Notes: generated by a model from the letters alone, not told the origin. A stretch of 64,000 nt of DNA from an uncultured delta proteobacterium (GCA_963712115.1 CAVQGX010000022.1:63153-127152), one strand, 5' to 3'; numbered from the stretch's first letter, positions 8,236-61,574 are shown. Numbers and translations: made by a program.

Positions 8236-8886
8236 TTACCCTTGACGAACTTTCAAGGATTGCTTTCGGCCCAGGGCACGTTTAGCTTTGAGGCGGAGCA
8301 AGCCGGGACTCTTATGGAGATACATCAAAGGGCTGTCAAAGCCTCCATTAAGAAAAAAACCCTCGAACTCATCAAAGAGTATCGGCCGAGTTGGCCAGGT
8401 ATACATACGTTCTCGTCGACGAAATCCTGCCCATTGCGAGGCCAGACTTTCGCTGTTGGCCAGCACCGAGTTTTTGGCAGCGTCGCACAAGAACATCTCA
8501 CAGACGATGGGTTTACAGAGCCAAAGACAGCCATTCTCATTCAAATAAACACAATTGAACCCACCGGTGTCACGCTCAAGGATCTCCAATAATGTGTCGT
8601 TTTGTTTGTTAGTCGAAAGGAGCACATTGATCACCACATCGGCGAAAAAGGTGATAATACCTTCGCGACCACAACAACCGCTCGTGCGGCTGCTGAAGCA
8701 TTTCTGTGAACAAATATCAGAAAAATGTTCTTCTTGAAAGGAGTTGACAGCTTTTCTAAATTGCACATATGACTTGATTCTTTGTTTAAGCCAGCGCAGC
8801 TTTGAGGCTGGAAGATGCGAAAGGTACTGACGCACCATGAGGATTGCGTCCTTCTGCTGCTGATTGTATTCACTCATCTCAAACAT
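8236..8886 (-). CDS. Cys-rich hypothetical protein (YkgJ-like zinc/iron-cluster type)
   Basis: CxxxC...GCC and CVYL...GC..KPIVCEMFLC motifs. Confidence 0.75.
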   Translation of the reverse strand: MFEMSEYNQQQKDAILMVRQYLSHLPASKLRWLKQRIKSYVQFRKAVNSFQEEHFSDICSQKCFSSRTSGCCGREGIITFFADVVINVLLSTNKQNDTLLEILERDTGGFNCVYLNENGCLWLCKPIVCEMFLCDAAKNSVLANSESLASQWAGFRRRERMYTWPTRPILFDEFEGFFLNGGFDSPLMYLHKSPGLLRLKAKRALGRKQSLKVRQG

Positions 8887-8943
8887 CTGGTTTCTTAAAG
8901 GCGGTGACCTTATTTAGTGGGGCGCACCCACTTTACACCTTAT

Positions 8944-9041
8944 ACTAGGCACTAGGGACTATGCACTAAGCACCTAAAAGATTAATTTTGAGGTTATACT
9001 GGTAGTGCCTACTGCCTACTGCCTAGTGCATAGTGCCTAGT
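8944..9041. repeat. Mirror pair of 7-nt tandem repeats (CTAGGCA-type / TAGTGCC-type)
   Basis: ctaggca ctaggga ctatgca ctaagca ... tagtgcc tactgcc tactgcc tagtgca tagtgcc; same family at 31171-31406 and 34774-34836. Confidence 0.75.
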
Positions 9042-9043
9042 GA

Positions 9044-9532
9044 TTAGAGTTCATAGAGCTTTTCATCTTTCCGGGGTGGCCTCTTCTGCAAAGATGCCTT
9101 TTTTTGTCCTTGAAAAACCAAAGGATCTTCTTCCTCTAGCAAATCACCCATTTCTGCTTCAATCTGTTCTGGGTCTTCGCCGGCCTCCATTCTCCGCAAC
9201 GCCTCCTCCATGCCAGTGCCGAGCTCCAGGCCGGTCATATGAGTCAATTTTCGCATCAACTGGGCCGCCTGTTTTGGGTCGTCCTCATTAATACGCTCAG
9301 CTTCGCTAGCGAGAGCGGTCATGGCCTTCTCCAGTTTTGACTCATCAATGTCGGGGAGGCCATCGTCCTGATCCTCCTTGACGCCGCGAAGTACTGCAAA
9401 AGAGGACATCTGTCGCTCGAGTTTTAAACGATTGCACTTGGGACAGGGAGGTATCTTTTCAGTGTTGATTGTACGGGAGAAAAAGTTAAAAATGATGTGG
9501 CATTGCGGGCAATAGAATTCATAAATCGGCAT
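9044..9532 (-). CDS. FmdB-family zinc-ribbon regulatory protein
   Basis: MPIYEFYCxxC...CPKC..LERQMS signature; GGAGG RBS. Confidence 0.88.
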   Translation of the reverse strand: MPIYEFYCPQCHIIFNFFSRTINTEKIPPCPKCNRLKLERQMSSFAVLRGVKEDQDDGLPDIDESKLEKAMTALASEAERINEDDPKQAAQLMRKLTHMTGLELGTGMEEALRRMEAGEDPEQIEAEMGDLLEEEDPLVFQGQKKASLQKRPPRKDEKLYEL

Positions 9533-30696: not shown

Positions 30697-31113
30697 ATGA
30701 AAAGAATTATTTCAGCGGTGTTGAAAATATCCATTGCACTAACTTTGGTTGCCGCTCTTTCCTTAAATGCAGTGGCCGGTAGCGCGCCCAGGATTACCAA
30801 AGAAGAACTCAAATCGATGCTGGGTGATGCAAAACTGGTTATTGTTGATCTTAGAAGAAGTAAGGACTGGAACTCCAGTGAATATAAAATAAAGGGTGCT
30901 GTCCGGGCCGATCCTGATCCAAGGAAGGTTGAATCCTGGGCCAGGAGCTATGGTAAAGACAAGACCTTCGTTGTTTATTGAGCCTGACCCAACGAACACA
31001 CCAGTGCCCGTGCGGTACTGAAGCTGATAGATGATGGATATCCCAAGGCCTATGCCTTAAAGGGCGGTTGGTACGAGTGGTTTCGGGCTAAATACCCAGT
31101 TGAAAAGAGGTAA
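30697..31113 (+). CDS. Secreted rhodanese-like selenoprotein with UxU motif (138 aa)
   Basis: After TFVVY, TGA (30979-81) GCC TGA (30985-87) continues in frame as PNEHTSARAV...YALKGGWYEWFRAKYPVEKR-TAA, completing the rhodanese fold; SECIS-like hairpin follows. Confidence 0.88.
31002..31020 (+). promoter_or_regulatory. SECIS-like hairpin of the UxU rhodanese
   Basis: CAGUGCC-CGUGC-GGUACUG; loop 27 and 21 nt after the two UGAs. Confidence 0.65.
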
Positions 31114-50487: not shown

Positions 50488-51738
50488 CTACGGATGCAGT
50501 CCCCTGAGTAACATGGCCTCGGTTACGCGCCTGACCGCCACAATGTAAGAGGCCATGCGCATGTTAACTTTTTCCTTCTGTGCCAACTCCCAAACGTCGT
50601 CAAAGGCGCGATCCATAATGCCCTTCAGTTTGGAATTGACCTCTTCCTCTGTCCAGAAATACCGTTCAAGCCCCTGAACCCACTCAAAGTAGGATGCGGT
50701 GACGCCTCCTGCGTTGGCGAGGATATCGGGTAAATGGTATTTGCCCCGCTCAAAAAGAATTTCATCAGCGGCTGGAGTTGTAGGGCCGTTTGCCCCTTCG
50801 GCAATTATATCTGCTTTGATGCGGTCTGCGTTTTCCCGGGTGATTTGATTTTCCATAGCGGCAGGGATCAGGATGGAGCAGTCCAACTCAAGTAATTCCT
50901 CGTTGGTGATGTTGTCTGCACCTGGGTAATTCAGAACAGAGCCACTCTCTTCCTTGTGTGTTGCTAGAGCCCGGGGGTCTAGACCTTTAGAATTAAAAAC
51001 CCCACCCTTGCTGTCGGTGGCTGCAATGATTTTGGCTCCATCGTCGTGGAAGATCTGGGCAGCGTTATAGCCCACATTACCGTATCCTTGAACCGCAACG
51101 GTCTGGTCTTCCACCTTGCGGTTCAATCTCCGCAGCAGTGAATAGGCTGTAAATACACAGCCGCGGCTGGTGGCTTCATTCCGGCCTAGAGAGCCGCCAA
51201 CTGCTATGGGCTTACCGGTTACCACCCCGGGTTCGGCGTAGCCCACAGATACGCTGTAAGTGTCCATGATCCAGGCCATGATTTGAGGATTGGTATAGAC
51301 ATCCGGGGCCGGTATGTCTGTCCTAGGCCCGAAAACATTGATTAATTCAGAAGTATACCTCCGGGTCAAACGTTGAAGCTCTCTCCTAGACATTATTTTA
51401 GGGTTGCAGGCAACGCCACCCTTTGCTCCACCGTATGGAATGTTGACTACTGCACACTTCCAAGTCATCCACATGGACAGGGCTGTGGTCTCCGCCAGGG
51501 TAACATCAGGGTGGTAGCGAATGCCACCTTTGGCAGGGCCACGAGAGGTGTTGTGATGCACACGATAGCCCTCAAAGACCTCGACCTCTCCATTATCCAG
51601 CCGGATGGGTACGGAGACGATATAACATCTTGCTGGTTTCCGGAGTCTCCTGTGAATTGAAGGATCCAACTTGATGTGTTCAGCGACCTGATCAAGCTGT
51701 TGCACAGCAACGTCCAGGGAGTTGTCTTTGCCGCTCAT
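50488..51738 (-). CDS. gdhA: Glu/Leu/Phe/Val dehydrogenase (glutamate dehydrogenase)
   Basis: GPAKGGIRYH, GGAKGG, DIPAPD, GYGNVG, EGANGP, PDILANAGGV. Confidence 0.95.
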   Translation of the reverse strand: MSGKDNSLDVAVQQLDQVAEHIKLDPSIHRRLRKPARCYIVSVPIRLDNGEVEVFEGYRVHHNTSRGPAKGGIRYHPDVTLAETTALSMWMTWKCAVVNIPYGGAKGGVACNPKIMSRRELQRLTRRYTSELINVFGPRTDIPAPDVYTNPQIMAWIMDTYSVSVGYAEPGVVTGKPIAVGGSLGRNEATSRGCVFTAYSLLRRLNRKVEDQTVAVQGYGNVGYNAAQIFHDDGAKIIAATDSKGGVFNSKGLDPRALATHKEESGSVLNYPGADNITNEELLELDCSILIPAAMENQITRENADRIKADIIAEGANGPTTPAADEILFERGKYHLPDILANAGGVTASYFEWVQGLERYFWTEEEVNSKLKGIMDRAFDDVWELAQKEKVNMRMASYIVAVRRVTEAMLLRGLHP

Positions 51739-51919
51739 GGTCATTCTCCTTTCAAATAAATCAAGCGAAAGGCAGAGCGCATTGAGCGACTGAGGCATAA
51801 CCGTGGCCCTTCGGCCAGTTGGAGGATTGAGGAGCGCGAAACCGTTATGCCAAGCGGTTTTCCTCTGTGGTTACTGCCTAATGCTTGATTGTTAGTTCTT
51901 AGTTCCTCCTGACCTGCAA

Positions 51920-52621
51920 CTACCTGCCAAGCAGTTTGCGCAGATTCTTTTCCTTCCAGGATTGTAAATTGTGGTAATGTCGAAATCGTTCTTCGACCTG
52001 GCGGAACCTTTTGGTGTGGGCCATTTTGCGGCCATTGCGAGATTCAACTCCTAGATAGTGATGCAGCATTTCATGATAAATGATGCCGGTAATGACATAT
52101 TTGGGTACGTAGTTCCTGTCCAACACAGGATTAATCCTGATAATTTTGGTTCTGTCGGAGTAGCTTGCTAGCTTGATCGAATTTTGTCGGCGAACTAGCC
52201 TTCTGGGTCCCCAGGTTATATGGCAGTCTATTTTGTTGGCAAAATATTCTCGATTGACTTGCTCGAAAAGTTCCTTGAGATTGAAGTGACGTCCATTATG
52301 ACGAAGAATAGTTCTCCGCGGTTTGGCCGGGGCTTTTCTGATTTTGTTGTGGTTAGAAGCAACAAAACTTCGAAGCGGAGAAGGTGCTTTCTTTTTTCGG
52401 CCATTGATGTAGTGGGCCAGTGACCTCAGAACCTTGGCATCTGCCTCGAGGAACATGTGATGCAACCGGACTCTGTAGCCACTATTGGAGGTCCTGATGT
52501 GGATCATCGAATGGATGTTGTCGGTAATGGTGAGGTGGATGGGTCTTTTCACCAACCGGAGGAGGGACTTTTCGAGGTCTGATAACGCTTGCAAATCTAG
52601 ATTGCTGACGATGGAGCCCAA
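51920..52621 (-). CDS. SprT/M48-like zinc metalloprotease domain protein (copy 1)
   Basis: IIYHEMLH (HExxH) followed by H...F. Confidence 0.8.
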   Translation of the reverse strand: MGSIVSNLDLQALSDLEKSLLRLVKRPIHLTITDNIHSMIHIRTSNSGYRVRLHHMFLEADAKVLRSLAHYINGRKKKAPSPLRSFVASNHNKIRKAPAKPRRTILRHNGRHFNLKELFEQVNREYFANKIDCHITWGPRRLVRRQNSIKLASYSDRTKIIRINPVLDRNYVPKYVITGIIYHEMLHHYLGVESRNGRKMAHTKRFRQVEERFRHYHNLQSWKEKNLRKLLGR

Positions 52622-52666
52622 GATCGTTATCCTTCCTCCCCTAAAAGTGTTGGATGAACTTCTAAC

Positions 52667-52899
52667 CCGGATTATTTATAAATCCGTCAGCTTCATGAAT
52701 AATCCGCCCTTCGGGCCCTTCGGCTTCGCTCAGGGTCCTGAGCCTGTCGAAGGACTTCGACTCCGATCTTTCAGATCTCCGCTCAGGGTTAGCCTTGAGC
52801 GAGGTGTGAAACACCGGGTCGAAACCCACAAGAAAGCAATTTGCTTTAATGTGGGTGCCCATTCACGAGCCAAAGGATTCGTGAATGGGGCAGGCTAAC
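52667..52899. mobile_element. 233-bp MITE-like insertion present only in repeat copy 1
   Basis: CTAAC duplicated at 52662 and 52895; copy 2 reads TTCTAACAGAAAAG (empty site, 56424-56437); hairpins at both ends. Confidence 0.85.
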
Positions 52900-53035
52900 A
52901 GAAAAGAGCTTTCAAATGCCAGCATTAATTTCTATTTTAGCATGACGGGGAGTTTTCCTGTTGACAGGTTCGAATGGGTAGATAAGCTATGATCTCACAT
53001 CACACATCAGAAATGAGCTTTTGAGAGGTGGCAAG

Positions 53036-53458
53036 ATGGACCCAAAAGTCAAAGAGGCACTGCGAAAGCAAGTTAGAAAGGAGCCTTTCGCCAAGAAGCT
53101 AGGTCTGAGTTTGATCGAGGTTGACGAGGGCTATGCGGTTGTGGAGATGGTGTGCACCGAAGAGATGGAGAACATTTTTCAGATGATCCATGGCGGTGCC
53201 ATATTCACTTTGATTGATGAGGCATTCGAAATATCCTGCAACTCCCACGGTACCGTGGCTGTGGCTCTGAATGTAAATATTACCTACCACCGGGCTCCGT
53301 CACCAAATAGCACCCTTAGGGCGGAATCCAAGGAAGTCTCAAGGACTCGGAAGACAGGGAACTACTACATTACCGTGAAGGATAATAAGGATAATCTTAT
53401 TGCCAGCTGCCAGGCCCTTGCTTACCGCAAAGGGGAGAAGCTACCTTTCTTGGAGTAG
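53036..53458 (+). CDS. PaaI-family thioesterase (copy 1)
   Basis: N....IHGGAIFTLIDEAF hotdog motif. Confidence 0.9.
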   Translation: MDPKVKEALRKQVRKEPFAKKLGLSLIEVDEGYAVVEMVCTEEMENIFQMIHGGAIFTLIDEAFEISCNSHGTVAVALNVNITYHRAPSPNSTLRAESKEVSRTRKTGNYYITVKDNKDNLIASCQALAYRKGEKLPFLE

Positions 53459-53785
53459 GGGACGTCCCCAATCGCTCCAGATGATTTTCATCTATTCTAA
53501 TTGCCCTCTAACCAGAGCTATTTTAATAAATAGTTAAAATAGTACATTAAATTATCCTTATCTGGACTAAGTCCGGTTTTAATAATATTGGTATATTTGA
53601 TATTTGCATGGTTCGATTTTGAATTTTGTAATAGACTAACAAAAAGATAGGAATTGCGAATTTTCTAGCCCCCGCTCTGCTTGATAAACCTTGGCTAAGG
53701 CGAGAGTGGTCCTTTACTATCCTCAAGAGGTGCCGCCCTCTTTATTGTGCAACCTTTTAGAAATACAGAGATTTTTATCTAAACA

Positions 53786-55306
53786 ATGGACAGGTCTTTA
53801 GGTATTACTATGTGGAGACGATTTTGCTGCTTACAGGTGCGAAAGAAAGCAATGATGGTCTTCTTGTCAGTAACCATTTTGGCTCTGTCAAGACCTGCAT
53901 TCGCTGCTGCCGAGCTTCAAAGCCAACAGTTAGCCCAGGTTCAAGAAGAGGCCAGGAGGGGAAACTACAAGCTCATCACGCCAGGGTCCATGAGAGATCG
54001 ATTTCTCAAAAATCCCTCCTCTCTCTTTTTGGTAGATACCCGCCAGGACTGGGAGTACCAGCAAGAGTACATTCAGGGGGCGGTGAACCTGCCGGTTAAG
54101 CCCACCTGGTGGACTCAGTACTCTCCCTCGGCTCGGGCCGGAATGAAAAAGCTCCTCGGGCCTGACAAGAAGCGAGAAGTAGTATTTTACTGAGACGGCC
54201 TTACCTGAGTCCGCAGTGACTCGGCGGCTAGGTTGGCCGTTAGACTCGGTTATGAAAACGTCTATCGCTACGCTGAAGGGCTTCCGCAATGGAAAGATAT
54301 GGGGCTGCCCACAGTAAAAGGACAAATCTCCCTGGTGCAGCCCTCAGGAATCGGTGCTCCAGGATCCGCACTTTTCCAATCAGGCCTACTTCTGACTCTT
54401 GTGGGAGTCTTTTTTGGCGGCTTCGCTCTCAATCTTACTCCCTGCGTCTATCCATTAATTCCCATTACCGTCTCCTATTTCGGTGGTCGTGGTAGCGAAA
54501 AAGCTGGTTTCTTAGCCTTTCACAGCCTCTTCTATCTACTGGGCCTCGCTATAACCAACTCAGCCCTCGGGGTGGTAGCTGCCCTTACCGGTGGACTCCT
54601 GGGCTCGGTGCTCCAGCATCCGGCAGTGCTAATTACTGTGGGCGTCATTCTGCTGGGTCTTGCCCTGAGCTTTTTCGGTCTTTGGGAACTCAAGCTACCA
54701 GCATTTGTGACTCAGGCCGCTTCCAGGTCATACAGCGGCTATGGGGGTAGCCTGTTCATGGGCCTTACCTTGGGGGTGGTGGCGGCTCCCTGCATTGGTC
54801 CCTTTCTGATAGGACTTCTGACTTACGTGGCCAGCACTGGAAATCCCTATCTGGGATTCGTACTCTTCTTCACCCTGAGCCTTGGCCTGGGTATTCCCTT
54901 GGCTATTCTGGCCTTTTTTTCTGGAAGACTGGAGCGGCTTCCCCGCTCCGGGGAATGGATGATATGGGTGCGCAAACTTTTGGGATGGGTCCTGGTGGCC
55001 ATGGCTGCCTACTTCATCAAACCGCTGTTTCATGGACACTCAGCAGGAATCATAGTATTCGCCCTGGTGGTTTTGGCAGCAGGAGTGCACCTTGGCTTTA
55101 TTGATCGGACTAGGGGCACCTTTCGGGCTCTTGGCCTGGTAAAAAAGGGATTTGGTATTGCCGCCTTAGCCCTGGCAACCTACATGGTCATCTCCTTGAT
55201 AATGATCGGTCCGGGAGTTGCCTGGCAAGACTATTCGAAAGAAACGCTTGAGCAGGCCGTCAAAACGGAGAGACCGGTAATCATCGACTTCTATGAAAAA
55301 AAATGA
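53786..55306 (+). CDS. Rhodanese-DsbD/CcdA-(thioredoxin) fusion selenoprotein, copy 1, cut at the repeat junction (TsoB-like)
   Basis: ORFs 53786-54193 and 54233-55306 share a frame, joined by TGA-GACGGCCTTACC-TGA (VFY-U-DGLT-U-VRSDSAARLA); LTPCVYP and APCIGP DsbD-beta Cys; stops at DFY just before WCxxC. Confidence 0.88.
54206..54240 (+). promoter_or_regulatory. Two tandem SECIS-like hairpins
   Basis: UGAGUC-CGCAGU-GACUCG (54206-54223) and GCGGCU-AGGUU-GGCCGU (54224-54240). Confidence 0.65.
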
Positions 55307-55343
55307 AAAATAGGAGGAAGAGAGGAGAGAGTGGTGAAGAAGT

Positions 55344-55501
55344 AAAGACCTCGACTCTCATTATCAGCCGGATAGGTACGGAGACGATATAACATCTTGC
55401 TGGCTCCGGAGTCTCTGTGAATTGAAGGATCAACTTGATGTGTTCAGCGACCTGATCAAGCTGTTGCACAGCAACGTCAGGGAGTTGTCTTTGCCGCTCA
55501 T
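55344..55501 (-). pseudogene. Degenerate duplicate of gdhA 5' end
   Basis: Matches 51574-51738 with several single-base deletions. Confidence 0.8.
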
Positions 55502-55683
55502 GGTCATTCTCCTTTCAAATAAATCAAGCGTAAGGCAGAGCGCATGAGCGACTGAGGCATAACCGAGGCCACTTCGGCCAGCTGGAGGATTGAGGAGCGC
55601 GAAACGTTATGCCAAGACAGTTTTCCTCAGTGGTACTGCCTAATGCTATGATTGTTAGTTCGAAGTTCCTACCTGACCTGCAA

Positions 55684-56385
55684 CTATCTGCCAAGGAGTC
55701 GACGCAGATTCTTTTCCTTCCAGGATTGTAAATTGTGGTAATGTCGAAATCGTTCTTCGACCTGGCGGAACCTTTTGGTGTGGGCCATTTTGCGGCCATT
55801 GCGAGATTCAACTCCTAGATAGTGATGCAGCATTTCATGATAAATGATGCCGGTAATGACATATTTGGGTACGTAGTTCCTGTCCAACACAGGATTAATC
55901 CTGATAATTTTGGTTCTGTCGGAGTAGCTTGCTAGCTTGATCGAATTTTGTCGGCGAACTAGCCTTCTGGGTCCCCAGGTTATATGGCAGTCTATTTTGT
56001 TGGCAAAATATTCTCGATTGACTTGCTCGAAAAGTTCCTTGAGATTGAAGTGACGTCCATTATGACGAAGAATAGTTCTCCGCGGTTTGGCCGGGGCTTT
56101 TCTGATTTTGTTGTGGTTAGAAGCAACAAAACTTCGAAGCGGAGAAGGTGCTTTCTTTTTTCGGCCATTGATGTAGTGGGCCAGTGACCTCAGAACCTTG
56201 GCATCTGCCTCGAGGAACATGTGATGCAACCGGACTCTGTAGCCACTATTGGAGGTCCTGATGTGGATCATCGAATGGATGTTGTCGGTAATGGTGAGGT
56301 GGATGGGTCTTTTCACCAACCGGAGGAGGGACTTTTCGAGGTCTGATAACGCTTGCAAATCTAGATTGCTGACGATGGAGCCCAA
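55684..56385 (-). CDS. SprT/M48-like metalloprotease domain protein (copy 2)
   Basis: One amino-acid difference from copy 1. Confidence 0.8.
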   Translation of the reverse strand: MGSIVSNLDLQALSDLEKSLLRLVKRPIHLTITDNIHSMIHIRTSNSGYRVRLHHMFLEADAKVLRSLAHYINGRKKKAPSPLRSFVASNHNKIRKAPAKPRRTILRHNGRHFNLKELFEQVNREYFANKIDCHITWGPRRLVRRQNSIKLASYSDRTKIIRINPVLDRNYVPKYVITGIIYHEMLHHYLGVESRNGRKMAHTKRFRQVEERFRHYHNLQSWKEKNLRRLLGR

Positions 56386-56568
56386 GATCGTTATCCTTCC
56401 TCCCCTAAAAGTGTTGGATGAACTTCTAACAGAAAAGAGCTTTCAAATGCCAGCATTAATTTCTATTTTAGCACGACGGGGAGGTTTCCTGTTGACAGGT
56501 TCGAATGGGGTAGATAAGCTATGATCTGCACATCACACATCAGAAATGAGCTTTTGAGAGGTGGCAAG

Positions 56569-56991
56569 ATGGACCCAAAAGTCAAAGAGGCACTGCGAAA
56601 GCAAGTTAGAAAGGAGCCTTTCGCCAAGAAGCTAGGTCTGAGTTTGATCGAGGTTGACGAGGGCTATGCGGTTGTGGAGATGGTGTGCACCGAAGAGATG
56701 GAGAACATTTTTCAGATGATCCATGGCGGTGCCATATTCACTTTGATTGATGAGGCATTCGAAATATCCTGCAACTCCCACGGTACCGTGGCTGTGGCTC
56801 TGAATGTAAATATTACCTACCACCGGGCTCCGTCACCAAATAGCACCCTTAGGGCGGAATCCAAGGAAGTCTCAAGGACTCGGAAGACAGGGAACTACTA
56901 CATTACCGTGAAGGATAATAAGGATAATCTTATTGCCAGCTGCCAGGCCCTTGCTTACCGCAAAGGGGAGAAGCTACCTTTCTTGGAGTAG
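56569..56991 (+). CDS. PaaI-family thioesterase (copy 2)
   Basis: Identical protein to copy 1. Confidence 0.9.
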   Translation: MDPKVKEALRKQVRKEPFAKKLGLSLIEVDEGYAVVEMVCTEEMENIFQMIHGGAIFTLIDEAFEISCNSHGTVAVALNVNITYHRAPSPNSTLRAESKEVSRTRKTGNYYITVKDNKDNLIASCQALAYRKGEKLPFLE

Positions 56992-57318
56992 GGGACGTCC
57001 CCAATCGCTCCAGATGATTTTCATCTATTCTAATTGCCCTCTAACCAGAGCTATTTTAATAAATAGTTAAAATAGTACATTAAATTATCCTTATCTGGAC
57101 TAAGTCCGGTTTTAATAATATTGGTATATTTGATATTTGCATGGTTCGATTTTGAATTTTGTAATAGACTAACAAAAAGATAGGAATTGCGAATTTTCTA
57201 GCCCCCGCTCTGCTTGATAAACCTTGGCTAAGGCGAGAGTGGTCCTTTACTATCCTCAAGAGGTGCCGCCCTCTTTATTGTGCAACCTTTTAGAAATACA
57301 GAGATTTTTATCTAAACA

Positions 57319-59103
57319 ATGGACAGGTCTTTAGGTATTACTATGTGGAGACGATTTTGCTGCTTACAGGTGCGAAAGAAAGCAATGATGGTCTTCTTGT
57401 CAGTAACCATTTTGGCTCTGTCAAGACCTGCATTCGCTGCTGCCGAGCTTCAAAGCCAACAGTTAGCCCAGGTTCAAGAAGAGGCCAGGAGGGGAAACTA
57501 CAAGCTCATCACGCCAGGGTCCATGAGAGATCGATTTCTCAAAAATCCCTCCTCTCTCTTTTTGGTAGATACCCGCCAGGACTGGGAGTACCAGCAAGAG
57601 TACATTCAGGGGGCGGTGAACCTGCCGGTTAAACCCACCTGGTGGACTCAGTACTCTCCCTCGGCTCGGGCCGGAATGAAAAAGCTCCTCGGGCCTGACA
57701 AGAAGCGAGAAGTAGTATTTTACTGAGACGGCCTTACCTGAGTCCGCAGTGACTCGGCGGCTAGGTTGGCCGTTAGACTCGGTTATGAAAACGTCTATCG
57801 CTACGCTGAAGGGCTTCCGCAATGGAAAGATATGGGGCTGCCCACAGTAAAAGGACAAATCTCCCTGGTGCAGCCCTCAGGAATCGGTGCTCCAGGATCC
57901 GCACTTTTCCAATCAGGCCTACTTCTGACTCTTGTGGGAGTCTTTTTTGGCGGCTTCGCTCTCAATCTTACTCCCTGCGTCTATCCATTAATTCCCATTA
58001 CCGTCTCCTATTTCGGTGGTCGTGGTAGCGAAAAAGCTGGTTTCTTAGCCTTTCACAGCCTCTTCTATCTACTGGGCCTCGCTATAACCAACTCAGCCCT
58101 CGGGGTGGTAGCTGCCCTTACCGGTGGACTCCTGGGCTCGGTGCTCCAGCATCCGGCAGTGCTAATTACTGTGGGCGTCATTCTGCTGGGTCTTGCCCTG
58201 AGCTTTTTCGGTCTTTGGGAACTCAAGCTACCGGGATTTCTGACCCAGACCGCATCCAGGTCGTACGGCGGTTATGGTGGTAGTCTTTTCATGGGGTTTA
58301 CCTCTGGGAGTGGTAGCTGCACCCTGCATCGGCCCTTTTCTCCTCGGGCTGCTGACTTACGTGGCCAGCACTGGCAATCCTTATCTGGGATTCATCCTCT
58401 TCTTTACTTTGAGCCTAGGCCTGGGCATTCCTCTTGGCTACTCTGGCCTTTTTTTCTGGGAAATTGGATAGACTGCCCCGCTCAGGGGAATGGATGATAT
58501 GGGTGCGAAAACTCTTGGGCTGGGTGCTGGTGGCCATGGCCGCTTACTTCATCAAACCGCTGTTTCATGGAAACTCAGCAGGAATCATAGTATTCGCCCT
58601 GGTGGTTTTGGCAGCAGGAGTGCACCTTGGCTTTATTGACCGGACTATGGGCACCTTTCGGGCTTTTGGCCTGGTAAAAAAGGGATTTGGTATTGCCGCC
58701 TTAGCCCTGGCGACCTACATGGTCATCTCCTTGATAATGATCGGTCCTGGAGTTGCCTGGCAAGACTATTCGGACGAAAGGGTTGAGCAGGCTGTCAAAA
58801 TGGAGAAAACCGGTAATCATCGACTTCTATGCAGACTGGTGCGCTCCGTGCCGGGAACTGGAGCAAATCACTTTTCACCATCCTGAGATTCTCAAGCTGG
58901 CAGAAAATGACTTTGTCATGATCAAAGTCGACCTAACCCGCAAGGGCAATCCGATTAATGAACATCTCCTGCGACAATATGACGTCAGAGGGGTTCCTAC
59001 AGTGGTGTTTTTGGACAGGCAGGGCAGGGAGCGGAAGGACTTGCGCGTGGTAAATTTTCTGCCCCCCGACGCAGTTTATAAAGCACATGATAATTCTCAA
59101 TAA
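57319..59103 (+). CDS. Rhodanese-DsbD/CcdA-thioredoxin fusion selenoprotein, copy 2, full length but with apparent frameshift errors (TsoB-like)
   Basis: TGA at 57724-26 and 57739-41; single-base insertions near 58302, 58433 and 58806 relative to copy 1; C-terminal DFYADWCAPC...GVPT thioredoxin; true stop may be 59116. Confidence 0.85.
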
Positions 59104-59129
59104 AAGCAATTCTTAGAATGGAGAAAAGC

Positions 59130-59445
59130 ATGGTGAGAGTAAGATTCTTTATGAACGAGCCCAATGGAAAGCCGTGAAAGCATTTCAAGGAGATGATGCC
59201 CAGGTTGGGCCAGAAGTACGAAATTGAAATTGAGACCATATCCAAACCCAATGCGGAATACTTAACCGATGAGTATTTTGAGCTGGATCTGCCGGTGGCT
59301 CCGGCGGTAATGGTCGGTGAGGAAATCGTGGTGGAGGGCAGTGACGTTCCCGGAAGACAAACTTGAAACGGTCATTTGCCAGCACCTGGGAATTCCCAGC
59401 CCAGAGCCGCAGAAGAAAGGTCTCTTTGGGCGGGTATTCAAATAG
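59130..59445 (+). CDS. Small NEPxGxxU-motif selenoprotein (TsoC-like), thioredoxin-like, one apparent frameshift
   Basis: ATG 59130 with GGAG: MVRVRFFMNEPNGKP-TGA(59175-77)-KHFKEMMPRL...LPVAPAVMVGEE; removing one C near 59350 gives ...KKGLFGRVFK-TAG; hairpin GCCC-AGGUU-GGGC at 59198-59210. Confidence 0.8.
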
Positions 59446-59620
59446 TTGAGCGTTATTAGTCCTGTAAATACCCTCAAAGGACCATACCTGGAGGTTTGGC
59501 CCTATTAGATTGGAACAAACATTATGAGTGAGGAGAGCACTTTGCGAATTTAGGCAAAAGAGGGCTCGCAATGGGGAAAATTTACCTAAGGAATGCGGCA
59601 GGTTGCGGGAGTGAGGTACT

Positions 59621-59882
59621 GTGATGGAAAACGAATTAACCTCCCGAGATAAAGAACGGATTGAGGAAAGCATCCGGGGGAAGTATGCCAAAGTCGCCGT
59701 TAGTCCTGAGGGCCTTTTCAGGTATCCGACCGGCTTGGCGGGACTGAGAACATTAAACTACGATCCGAACAACCATCCAAACCCTACCGGAGAGTATAAC
59801 GGCCTCCTACTGTGGTGTGGGAAACCCTTTTGCTTTGGGACCGATTCGCAAGGGAGAGGCGGTCTTGGATATGGTACGATAA
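59621..59882 (+). pseudogene. N-terminal fragment of an ArsM-like SAM methyltransferase
   Basis: IRGKYAKVA.SP...F.YPTG..GL..L.Y then (frameshift near 59770) ASYCGVGNPFALGPIRKGEAVLD; breaks off before GxGxG. Confidence 0.7.
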
Positions 59883-60327
59883 AATACATAGCATTAGGAT
59901 GGGACGCTCTTCAATAAGTAAATCCACTCATTAATAAATTCACAACAATTTGAAGTCATTAACTAGATGGTTTAAGCTCTTTGCTGGCTCTTTGAGCCTC
60001 GCAAGTCAAAATAACCTCCATCAACTTTTATCCCCCACACCAGTGTCATCCACCTGTAAGCTGGTAACAGCTGACCCTTATCCGTGTCGGCAATCACAAT
60101 AATTAATATGCGACGTATCTAAATTATCTATTCAAATTCCCTTCTTATCTCGTTCTATTTCAATAGTGATTTCCGATATAAGTCATTGGTAAAAATCGAA
60201 ATTATCTATTTGACTTTCCCTTCAATCAGCCTTGTAATAGTGCAAATGTTCACACTTTTGAAAATCTCTGGATACACAATCAGATGGGCTTCCACGGCTG
60301 GTGAATCATTCAGAGGGGTTAAGCTTC

Positions 60328-61030
60328 ATGCGCGTCTGCCTGATTGCCACAGCTTTGGCTTGCATGTTTCTTAATTTATTTTCCGCCCCTAATGTCTTTG
60401 GGGCCTCACCTGCAATCCGTTTCCAGGAGGATGTCTTCACCTTCCAGCCGATTTTGGAGGGTGAATCTGTTGATATCACCTTCGAATTTAGCAATGGAGG
60501 TGAGGGAGCCTCTAGTAATCCATGACGCGGTGACCTCGTGTGGTTGTACCACGGCAGACTATCCAAGTGATTCCCTAAAGCCGGGAGAGAAAGGCACGAT
60601 CAAGACCACATTTCACTCCAAGGGACATGCTGGGGATAATGATATCAGTCTGCTAGTGAAGAGCAACGATCCCACAGTACCCGCCAAGACACTGCGCATA
60701 AGGGGAAAAGTGATTCGTCAATGGCAGGTAAAACCGAACCGGTTCATCCTGACCAATTTGAGACCGGGGAGCACCCTAAGCAAGAAATTTCAGATAACTA
60801 ACTTCATGAAAGAACCACTACAGATTAGAGAACTCGTGGCCGGAAATCCTCAAATAAGACTTCTCTCCACGGCCAAAGAAGTGGCTCCGGATAAGGACCA
60901 AGCCATTGCCTTCGAGGTGAGTTTAAAGGACCTCAAAACTGGCCAAATCACACAGTCTTCTATTCGAATAGAGGTTTACAATGCCGAGATGCAATCGGTC
61001 GAGATTCCAGTACTAATGAAACTCAAATGA
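60328..61030 (+). CDS. Exported DUF1573-type Ig-like protein, one apparent frameshift
   Basis: Signal peptide, F.F.N.G then PLVI..V.TSCGCT...LKPGEKG in the next frame (shift near 60505). Confidence 0.8.
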
Positions 61031-61052: not shown

Positions 61053-61574
61053 ATGCGAAAGGCTGCAGTGGTCTTCTGGCTGGTTGTTGTAGTTGTGAGC
61101 CTGTCTTTCGTTTCCGCTTGCGATAATCCGCAGAAAGTAGGCGTGAGCCAGGCCAACGTTCAAAGTGAATTTCTGGCGATGAAAGCAGCCAGCGAAAAAG
61201 AACGGGGCGATTACAAGTTGATTAGTTTAGGGGATTTGAAGGCAAAATTAGACGCCAAGGAGGATATTCTTGTTGTGGACACCATGCCCTATGAGGCCAG
61301 CTACAAAAAACAGCACATTCCAACCGCTGTGCAGTTTGAGTTCCCAATTGCCGAGATGACAACCATGGATCCTGAAATGAAAAGGCAATACCAGGAATTA
61401 CTAGGGCCGGACAAAGATAAAATGATTGTAGTTTACTGTGGCTTTGTCAAGTGTGGGCGGAGCCACAACGGGGGCATGTGGGCGACAAGACTGGGTTACA
61501 CAAATGTCTACCGCTGTCTCGGCGGAATATTCGGTTGGAAGGAGGCCGGGTATGCGGTTGAAGCGGTGAAATAG
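61053..61574 (+). CDS. Rhodanese-like lipoprotein (CxxxxC active loop)
   Basis: Lipobox VSAC; VVDT, HIPTA, VVYCGFVKCGRSH, GGIFGWKEAG. Confidence 0.92.
   Translation: MRKAAVVFWLVVVVVSLSFVSACDNPQKVGVSQANVQSEFLAMKAASEKERGDYKLISLGDLKAKLDAKEDILVVDTMPYEASYKKQHIPTAVQFEFPIAEMTTMDPEMKRQYQELLGPDKDKMIVVYCGFVKCGRSHNGGMWATRLGYTNVYRCLGGIFGWKEAGYAVEAVK

Follow-up and report, generated by a model that had tools for sequence, protein, structure and literature searches.

The window analysed here, a stretch of 64,000 nucleotides from an uncultured delta proteobacterium (GCA_963712115.1, CAVQGX010000022.1:63153-127152), carries between positions 53786 and 59103 a gene for a rhodanese-DsbD-thioredoxin fusion whose rhodanese active loop contains two in-frame TGA codons, readable as selenocysteine (Sec, U) in the arrangement U-x4-U. 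The best explanation, taken whole as one claim, is that this gene is tsoB of the family NF045694, followed by tsoC, and it is held with high confidence. In relatives in which the gene is intact, the natural TsoB is, as judged from the encoded protein, a single polypeptide of about 580-590 residues, predicted to consist of a signal or anchor helix at the N-terminus, a Sec-x4-Sec rhodanese, an eight-helix membrane domain of the DsbD/CcdA type and a thioredoxin domain of the DsbD-gamma type (WCxPC), in this order.

The TsoB family is already named and computationally defined, the definition being reportedly that of Haft & Tolstoy (mSystems, 2025). A 2026 review lists TsoA, TsoB (motif UxxxxU, two Sec), TsoC, TsoX and TsoY, crediting Haft & Tolstoy 2025 (PMC13188914). 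An earlier, sequence-only reading of the window had proposed the name TsoB, which an NCBIfam search returned as NF045694 seleno_TsoB. The same reading had described the whole span as one frame, a description that had to be given up: self-BLAST of the window resolves the span into two tandem copies of tsoB, the first of which stops before the thioredoxin motif WCAPC, while the second changes frame three times. Copy 1 matches NF045694 with 715.8 bits over model positions 8-486 of 572, its match opening at residue 23 (position 53852), which makes a start further in likely. The thioredoxin piece of copy 2 gives 161.7 bits in the NCBIfam search, and the separate pieces of this copy (406.2, 73.9, 156.1 and 156.2 bits) together cover positions 8-566. 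Neither copy reaches the whole-protein cut-off of 805 bits, because of truncation and frame breaks; among intact relatives the scores lie at 860-892 bits, and L031, the intact relative used below for comparison, has 872 bits.

The predicted architecture, in which a rhodanese substitutes for the alpha domain of DsbD, is supported by NCBIfam, Pfam and a PDB profile search. In copy 1, Pfam places Rhodanese at residues 76-171 and DsbD_TM at residues 204-414, and thioredoxin-like domains lie in 58753-59100; the profile search returned DsbD gamma (1.8e-21), a rhodanese (6mxv, 1.8e-16) and CcdA (5vkv, 3e-10). The membrane cysteines (TPCV, APCI) and the WCAPC motif are present in the window as previously read. 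The rhodanese, membrane and thioredoxin parts are ordered, yet in neither copy do they lie within one frame. Across 25 aligned sequences the membrane cysteines are invariant (25/25), the thioredoxin cysteine pair is kept in at least 90%, and the di-Sec loop is nearly invariant.

Conservation of the Sec-x4-Sec loop

The pair of in-frame TGA codons reads VFY-U-DGLT-U-VRS, and the U-x4-U loop is present in both copies. Relatives were collected in two scans of species-representative genomes, which gave 133 loci. The first scan (53 loci) comprised 31 loci with U-x4-U, one frameshifted extra copy (L082), one unrelated rhodanese (L083) and 20 loci matching the DsbD part only; in the second (80 loci), 79 had U-x4-U and one (L091) had C-x4-C. 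Thus, TGA occupies both loop positions in 110 of the 111 related fusion loci (31/31 and 79/80 in the two scans), L091, with Cys at both, being the sole exception. Among the best 150 matches from 1.84 billion protein representatives, P0019, with a G-x4-C loop, was the only full-length fusion without a called Sec, and the others were ordinary DsbD proteins or fragments starting past the second UGA. As one Cys/Cys form in 111 loci and one Gly/Cys form in the set of protein representatives are the only exceptions, the di-Sec state is almost obligatory in the family.

In the window's genus, seven of the 17 other genomes carry one full-length copy with exactly two TGA, and among the members compared only the genome of the window has two partial TsoB matches. 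Some metagenome-assembled genomes hold two or three tsoB loci (L049, L082 and L124; L058, L103 and L104; L046 and L162), the heavily frameshifted second copy L082 lying on the same contig as the intact L049.

An exchange of Cys for Sec, expected from the sequence-only reading, was found twice: in L091 and in the stand-alone rhodanese encoded downstream at 61053. The latter, a paralogue of the N-terminal domain of TsoB, aligns with it at 36% identity (E value 1e-24), gapless around the loop, which places a Cys opposite each U; the position of the paralogue is kept in the relatives L031 and L032.

It could be argued that both TGA are ordinary stops dividing the locus into two products, a short piece of rhodanese and a DsbD-like protein of its own, as public gene calls have it, with 448-residue 'DsbD' proteins starting after the second TGA; the failure to find a tRNA-Sec in the draft genome (see below) would agree with this. 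However, a rhodanese ending there would be cut at its catalytic residue and lose its active site, the TGA pair, the frame and the protein sequence are kept across 110 of 111 loci, L091 and the 61053 paralogue have Cys in place of both Sec, and the hairpins described in the next section covary. When the frame was checked in 30 loci, 24 had a single open frame, 577-781 codons long, that contains WCxPC and exactly two TGA, one ran off its contig and five were broken, which is not what two separate genes with a real stop, the case that the sequence-only reading had set against itself, would give. The ordinary-stop explanation is hardly credible, and the comparative data, as far as predicted proteins go, already contradict it.

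Hairpins at the two UGA codons and the Sec machinery

Two adjacent hairpins resembling selenocysteine insertion sequence (SECIS) elements follow the UGA codons. The first stem begins 13 nt past the first UGA, and its 5' arm holds the GA of the second UGA; the second stem begins 15 nt past the second UGA. The hairpin loops open 18 and 21 nt past the respective codon. This arrangement, proposed earlier from the sequence of the window, was recovered by RNAalifold and by covariation. The ungapped alignment used, which starts 6 nt before the first UGA, contained 29 and later 107 sequences, and both hairpins were predicted from it unaided.

In the 107 sequences, 98.6% of the cells are paired, a value falling to 23.5-60.7% when partners are slid; 65 cells are changed on both sides, and the covariation score was matched by none of 500 shuffles. 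Hairpin 1 has 97.4% of its cells paired, with one compensatory change. Hairpin 2 is paired at 99.7%, with compensatory changes at two pairs, 42/54 (GC 56, AU 34, CG 11, UA 1) and 45/51 (CG 88, UA 17), which are synonymous, lying in the third position of two Ala codons. Third positions within the stems are near-fixed (C 27/28, C 29/29, C 27/29, G 23/23), and those in the loops vary freely. All this supports one SECIS-like hairpin for each UGA. As the second UGA lies within the stem of hairpin 1, this hairpin would have to melt before the second UGA is decoded.

A single long hairpin over both UGA, into which the local sequence folds with the lowest energy, was rejected: its main helix is only 66.7% paired in 29 sequences, has no compensatory changes and does no better than shuffles. 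The Cys forms were also considered as a negative control for SECIS function and set aside, being too few and still forming the hairpins in part. At the Cys paralogue (61437-61496 in the window, 9481-9540 in L031) a 5-bp hairpin (UGUGG/CCACA) is possible from the second Cys codon, in the place of hairpin 1, and the paralogue of L032 has a mismatch in the corresponding hairpin; the hairpin at this gene may be a relic of a Sec-containing ancestor, or may be due to chance.

The pairing of two phased SECIS hairpins with covariation support may be new. No description of paired bacterial SECIS hairpins was found in the literature under such phrases, all titles among the matches listed being eukaryotic, in a search that left the family-defining paper outside.

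Regarding the machinery, a genome search found SelA (618 bits), SelB (395 bits) and SelD (382 bits), the last with its own in-frame TGA. The sequence-only reading had allowed that Sec machinery and a full-length product might both be lacking; these three proteins answer the first half of that objection, which keeps its force in that no full-length copy is assembled and tRNA-Sec was not found. In addition to the standard runs, relaxed ARAGORN thresholds gave 14 'SeC' calls without tRNA-Sec features by eye, a motif scan gave 32 matches, all judged to be chance, and Rfam found no tRNA-Sec beside selA, selB or selD. With 70 contigs and 44 called tRNAs, the draft reaches a completeness of 94.4% at a contamination of 5.99%, and the missing tRNA-Sec is a gap in this draft, not proof of absence. 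In sum, locus and genome show the Sec/Cys pairs, the hairpins and the proteins SelA, SelB and SelD by which bacterial selenoproteins are recognised; the search of the 94.4% complete draft gave no tRNA-Sec.

On the same contig, outside the window (G000:C22:26789-28287), selD with its in-frame TGA is immediately followed by a rhodanese-like open reading frame that matches the N-terminus of TsoB weakly, with 25.5 bits.

The tandem repeat and the surrounding genes

Self-BLAST and an identity profile divide the tsoB region into two repeat units joined by a short filler (Table 1). Each unit contains a dehydrogenase gene (-), represented by its 5' end, together with sprT-like (-) and hotdog thioesterase (+) genes and the rhodanese-DsbD gene tsoB; the putative label Glu-dehydrogenase-like comes from a reading of the translation. 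Over 52000-54600 the units are identical save for one mismatch, a 228-nt piece and two single G; according to the identity profile, the central 2.6 kb are identical and the flanks differ by about 10%. The two halves of the filler (a 25-mer and a 28-mer) are unique to the junction within the genome, and about a dozen 1-nt indels separate the dehydrogenase fragment opening unit 2 from its counterpart in unit 1. Unit 2 lacks the 228-nt piece (52667-52894), which in unit 1 separates sprT from the thioesterase gene; the translations of this piece resemble a short repeated intergenic element.

Table 1. Positions in the window of tsoB, its predicted recoding elements, the repeat units and other genes discussed in the text
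Feature	Position	Strand	Remarks
tsoB copy 1	53786..55309	+	one frame, two Sec codons, ends ...DFYEKK, TGA stop 55307-55309
tsoB copy 2	57319..59103	+	rhodanese, membrane domain and WCAPC thioredoxin all there, frame-broken
First predicted Sec codon (UGA), copy 1	54191..54193	+	copy 2 counterpart 57724-57726
Second predicted Sec codon (UGA), copy 1	54206..54208	+	copy 2 counterpart 57739-57741
SECIS-like hairpin 1	54207..54222	+	5-bp stem GAGUC/GACUC, loop CGCAGU; for first UGA; copy 2: 57740-57755
SECIS-like hairpin 2	54224..54240	+	6-bp stem, A-U extension in window leaves GGU loop; for second UGA; copy 2: 57757-57773
Repeat unit 1	51574..55295		ends at start of tsoB thioredoxin domain; self-BLAST, identity profile, Pfam, NCBIfam
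Junction filler	55296..55333		purine-rich, low complexity, joins units 1 and 2
Repeat unit 2	55344..58831		flanks diverged on both sides, many 1-nt indels; self-BLAST, identity profile
tsoC (NEPxGxxU selenoprotein)	59118..59445	+	NF045708, 137.1 bits, cut-off 45
ArsM-type methyltransferase selenoprotein remnant	59621..59917	+	first 80 of 345 model positions
DUF1573 / OS_HP2-family gene	60301..61030	+	split over two frames near 60500; intact in L031 at 8287-9090
Stand-alone rhodanese	61053..61574	+	signal-like N-terminus, Cys at both loop positions (VVY-C-GFVK-C-GRS)
Exported LYCAU-type rhodanese	30697..31113	+	NF041203 rhodanese_LYCAU, 172.4 bits, cut-off 115

The stop of copy 1 falls just beyond the end of the repeat. 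Copy 2 equals copy 1 in its first 1000 nt but for one mismatch, diverges by about 10% from about 58260, and passes through the frames 1, 2, 0 and 1, the three shifts lying between the second membrane Cys and WCAPC. Single extra bases stand at 58303, 58432 and 58805, with a fourth near the end at 59062, and a further one at 59352 breaks the frame of tsoC. These five bases are missing from 11 of 11 relative rows, representing seven distinct genomes; all are +1 insertions within short runs, and there are no deletions or larger lesions.

Contigs of four other metagenome runs were placed on 55000-60400; the best run shares 0.48 of words with the window, and the source sample is not clearly included among the runs. 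Outside the repeat, an extra base at 59071 is missing in all three covering runs and one at 59770 in all four, one of these contigs being 421 nt long with a single mismatch to the window. Frame breaks relative to L031 also reach the conserved peptidoglycan-activator gene lpoB downstream. Besides, the bin holds redundant contigs with identical or near-identical stretches (C9/C10, C16/C59, C27/C51, C36/C54, C43/C45 and C43/C70). Because the changes are insertions only, contigs without the extra bases exist, unrelated genes are frame-broken too and the bin contains redundant contigs, the duplication and frame breaks are attributed, with some preference, to an assembly or consensus error rather than to decay. 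Two points count against this attribution: the read evidence inside the repeat is confounded, contigs of the copy-1 type being placed on copy 2, and in run X1 a depth of 7 of 24.5 at 58301 agrees with the extra base of the window.

It has also been considered, as a rather improbable explanation, that the duplication and frameshifts are real, the sprT-thioesterase-tsoB segment having been duplicated and the locus decaying, so that TsoB is not made. Both copies and their junction do stand in the assembly, and loss is plausible for a gene that is accessory in the genus, where 8 of the 17 other genomes have it. The ArsM-type gene, a remnant in the window, is longer or absent in other populations, the substitutions at the 3' side of copy 2 look like true variation (its protein is nearer to that of L031 than that of copy 1 is), and the depth of run X1 shows the form of the window being carried. 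Nevertheless, single-base changes confined to +1 insertions in short runs, their extension into lpoB and the near-identical independent contig without the extra base at 59770 speak against decay, and an identical 2.6 kb centre with flanks diverged by about 10% would be odd for a simple old duplication. No contig over the junction (55296-55343) was among those listed from the four runs, where depth is low or nil, a result uninformative either way; contigs running into the dehydrogenase gene at 55365 may be copy-1-type sequence, copy 1 lying outside the placed stretch. It follows for the use of this locus that the local assembly of the window is not to be trusted for the exact structure of tsoB.

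Next to tsoB lies tsoC, the sole copy in the genome, with its UGA at 59175-59177 and a hairpin (GCCCA-GGU-UGGGC) 23 nt downstream. A search for tsoA gave no match in the genome at E <= 0.01 (94.4% completeness), and the nearest clade is likewise without tsoA. Further relatives have the order tsoA-tsoB-tsoC, and the LULAxC motif occurs in 16 of 30 loci, mostly directly upstream. Beyond tsoC, the ArsM-type insertion is variable between populations: in other metagenomes one contig has 508 extra letters at 59874/59875, and two contigs, like L031, are without the whole remnant.

A census of neighbours at 109 loci found a VTT/DedA-type membrane protein in 77 (once fused to a rhodanese), the post-UGA part of tsoC in 36 and that of tsoA in 21, a methyltransferase in 15, a GcvH-like protein in 13 and a flavoprotein similar to thioredoxin reductase in seven. 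The tsoB contig of the window's genome has no VTT gene. This set of neighbours suggests the handling of small chalcogen or metalloid species in the cell envelope, the species themselves not being named by it.

Far upstream, the exported LYCAU-type rhodanese has two in-frame TGA two codons apart (VVY-U-A-U), and a single hairpin (CAGUGCC-CGUGC-GGUACUG), 23 nt past the first UGA, follows both. The rhodanese_LYCAU form is listed in the review as CxU with one Sec (PMC13188914); here TGA is found at both positions.

Proposed mechanism and relation to known systems

On the model of DsbD, both soluble domains of TsoB, rhodanese and thioredoxin, would be periplasmic, and a cytoplasmic thiol donor could supply electrons to the membrane Cys pair, which would hand them on to WCxPC and finally to the di-Sec loop. 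The loop would cycle between diselenide and diselenol, reducing or carrying sulfur, selenium or other chalcogen or metalloid species outside the cytoplasm. The presence of a second Sec five residues on, in a longer loop, suggests a resolving partner, and a diselenide/diselenol couple rather than a persulfide carrier. The self-contained trans-membrane reductase for sulfur and selenium species envisaged in the sequence-only reading would fit the domain order, again by comparison with DsbD. The complete proposal, in which Sec-x4-Sec is a natural diselenide/diselenol centre ending a DsbD-type relay and is made by two phased SECIS hairpins acting in turn, is put forward tentatively, as a possibility with somewhat less than even chances.

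Several observations weigh against the best explanation given at the outset. Full-length TsoB is encoded by no copy as assembled. tRNA-Sec was not found in the draft genome by ARAGORN, and the best match to RF01852 is a tRNA-Ser with 45.8 bits, below the gathering score of 47. Hairpin 1, with one compensatory change and 14 unpaired cells among 535, leans mainly on conservation, and in the Cys form L091, an unclean control, hairpin 1 loses two of its five pairs and hairpin 2 keeps six of six. An AlphaFold2 model of the L031 protein, built with 25 sequences, is too weak for domain contacts (predicted local distance difference test, pLDDT, 70.3; predicted template modelling score, pTM, 0.44), and the relay and the diselenide are argued purely by analogy. 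Finally, no experimental work on any TsoB was found in the literature searched, and the titles on bacterial rhodanese selenoproteins with a diselenide included none on the TsoB family.

Another proposal would make the di-Sec rhodanese a reductase or carrier of metalloids (arsenate, selenite, tellurite), like the arsenate reductases of the rhodanese/Cdc25 fold, and not a sulfur enzyme. The ArsM-type remnant beside tsoC, an ArsR-family regulator ahead of tsoA in L040, the methyltransferases at 15 of the 109 loci and the VTT/DedA-type neighbours at 77, one of them rhodanese-fused, can all be cited for it, and one DedA protein is reportedly linked to selenite uptake. Persulfides, however, are also sensed by ArsR-family regulators, and the neighbour census turned up no genes of an arsenic operon. 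Judging from the motif, the loop of TsoB presumably exceeds the canonical rhodanese loop by two residues and that of the Cdc25 type by one. A metalloid function is considered unlikely.

TsoB is one of the few bacterial proteins with two Sec only five residues apart, and the comparative data give a testable picture of two close UGA codons, each with its own hairpin. If the diselenide proposal is true, the family would provide a natural double recruitment of SelB within five codons, at UGA codons 15 nt apart, and, for chalcogen or metalloid species, a periplasmic reductant of very low potential. The family is well suited to two questions, namely the working of SelB at closely spaced sites and the role of diselenides in envelope redox chemistry.

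Compared with the rest of the TsoB family, the locus of the window has the same domain order, the same U-x4-U loop, an adjacent tsoC and a hidden Markov model cover of 8-566; it differs in that the gene is duplicated, each copy remains below 805 bits and the genome has no tsoA match. With DsbD of the E. coli type, TsoB shares both transfer Cys in the membrane domain and a C-terminal domain nearest to DsbD gamma, and the best non-TsoB matches among protein representatives are ordinary DsbD proteins; however, where DsbD has an immunoglobulin-like alpha domain with a Cys pair, TsoB has the di-Sec rhodanese, and copy 1 and the intact L031 protein stay below the 330-bit cut-off of the model NF001419 DsbD, with 159.2 and 253.9 bits respectively. 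The LYCAU-type rhodaneses (NF041203) resemble the N-terminal part in being small exported rhodaneses with Sec in the active loop, whereas the one in the window is a single-domain protein with U-x-U and one hairpin after both UGA, and TsoB itself matches NF041203 weakly (26.2 bits). CcdA (5vkv) belongs to the same membrane fold family, although it has neither an N-terminal nor a C-terminal soluble domain; copy 1, which lacks the thioredoxin domain, amounts to a CcdA-like protein with an added rhodanese.

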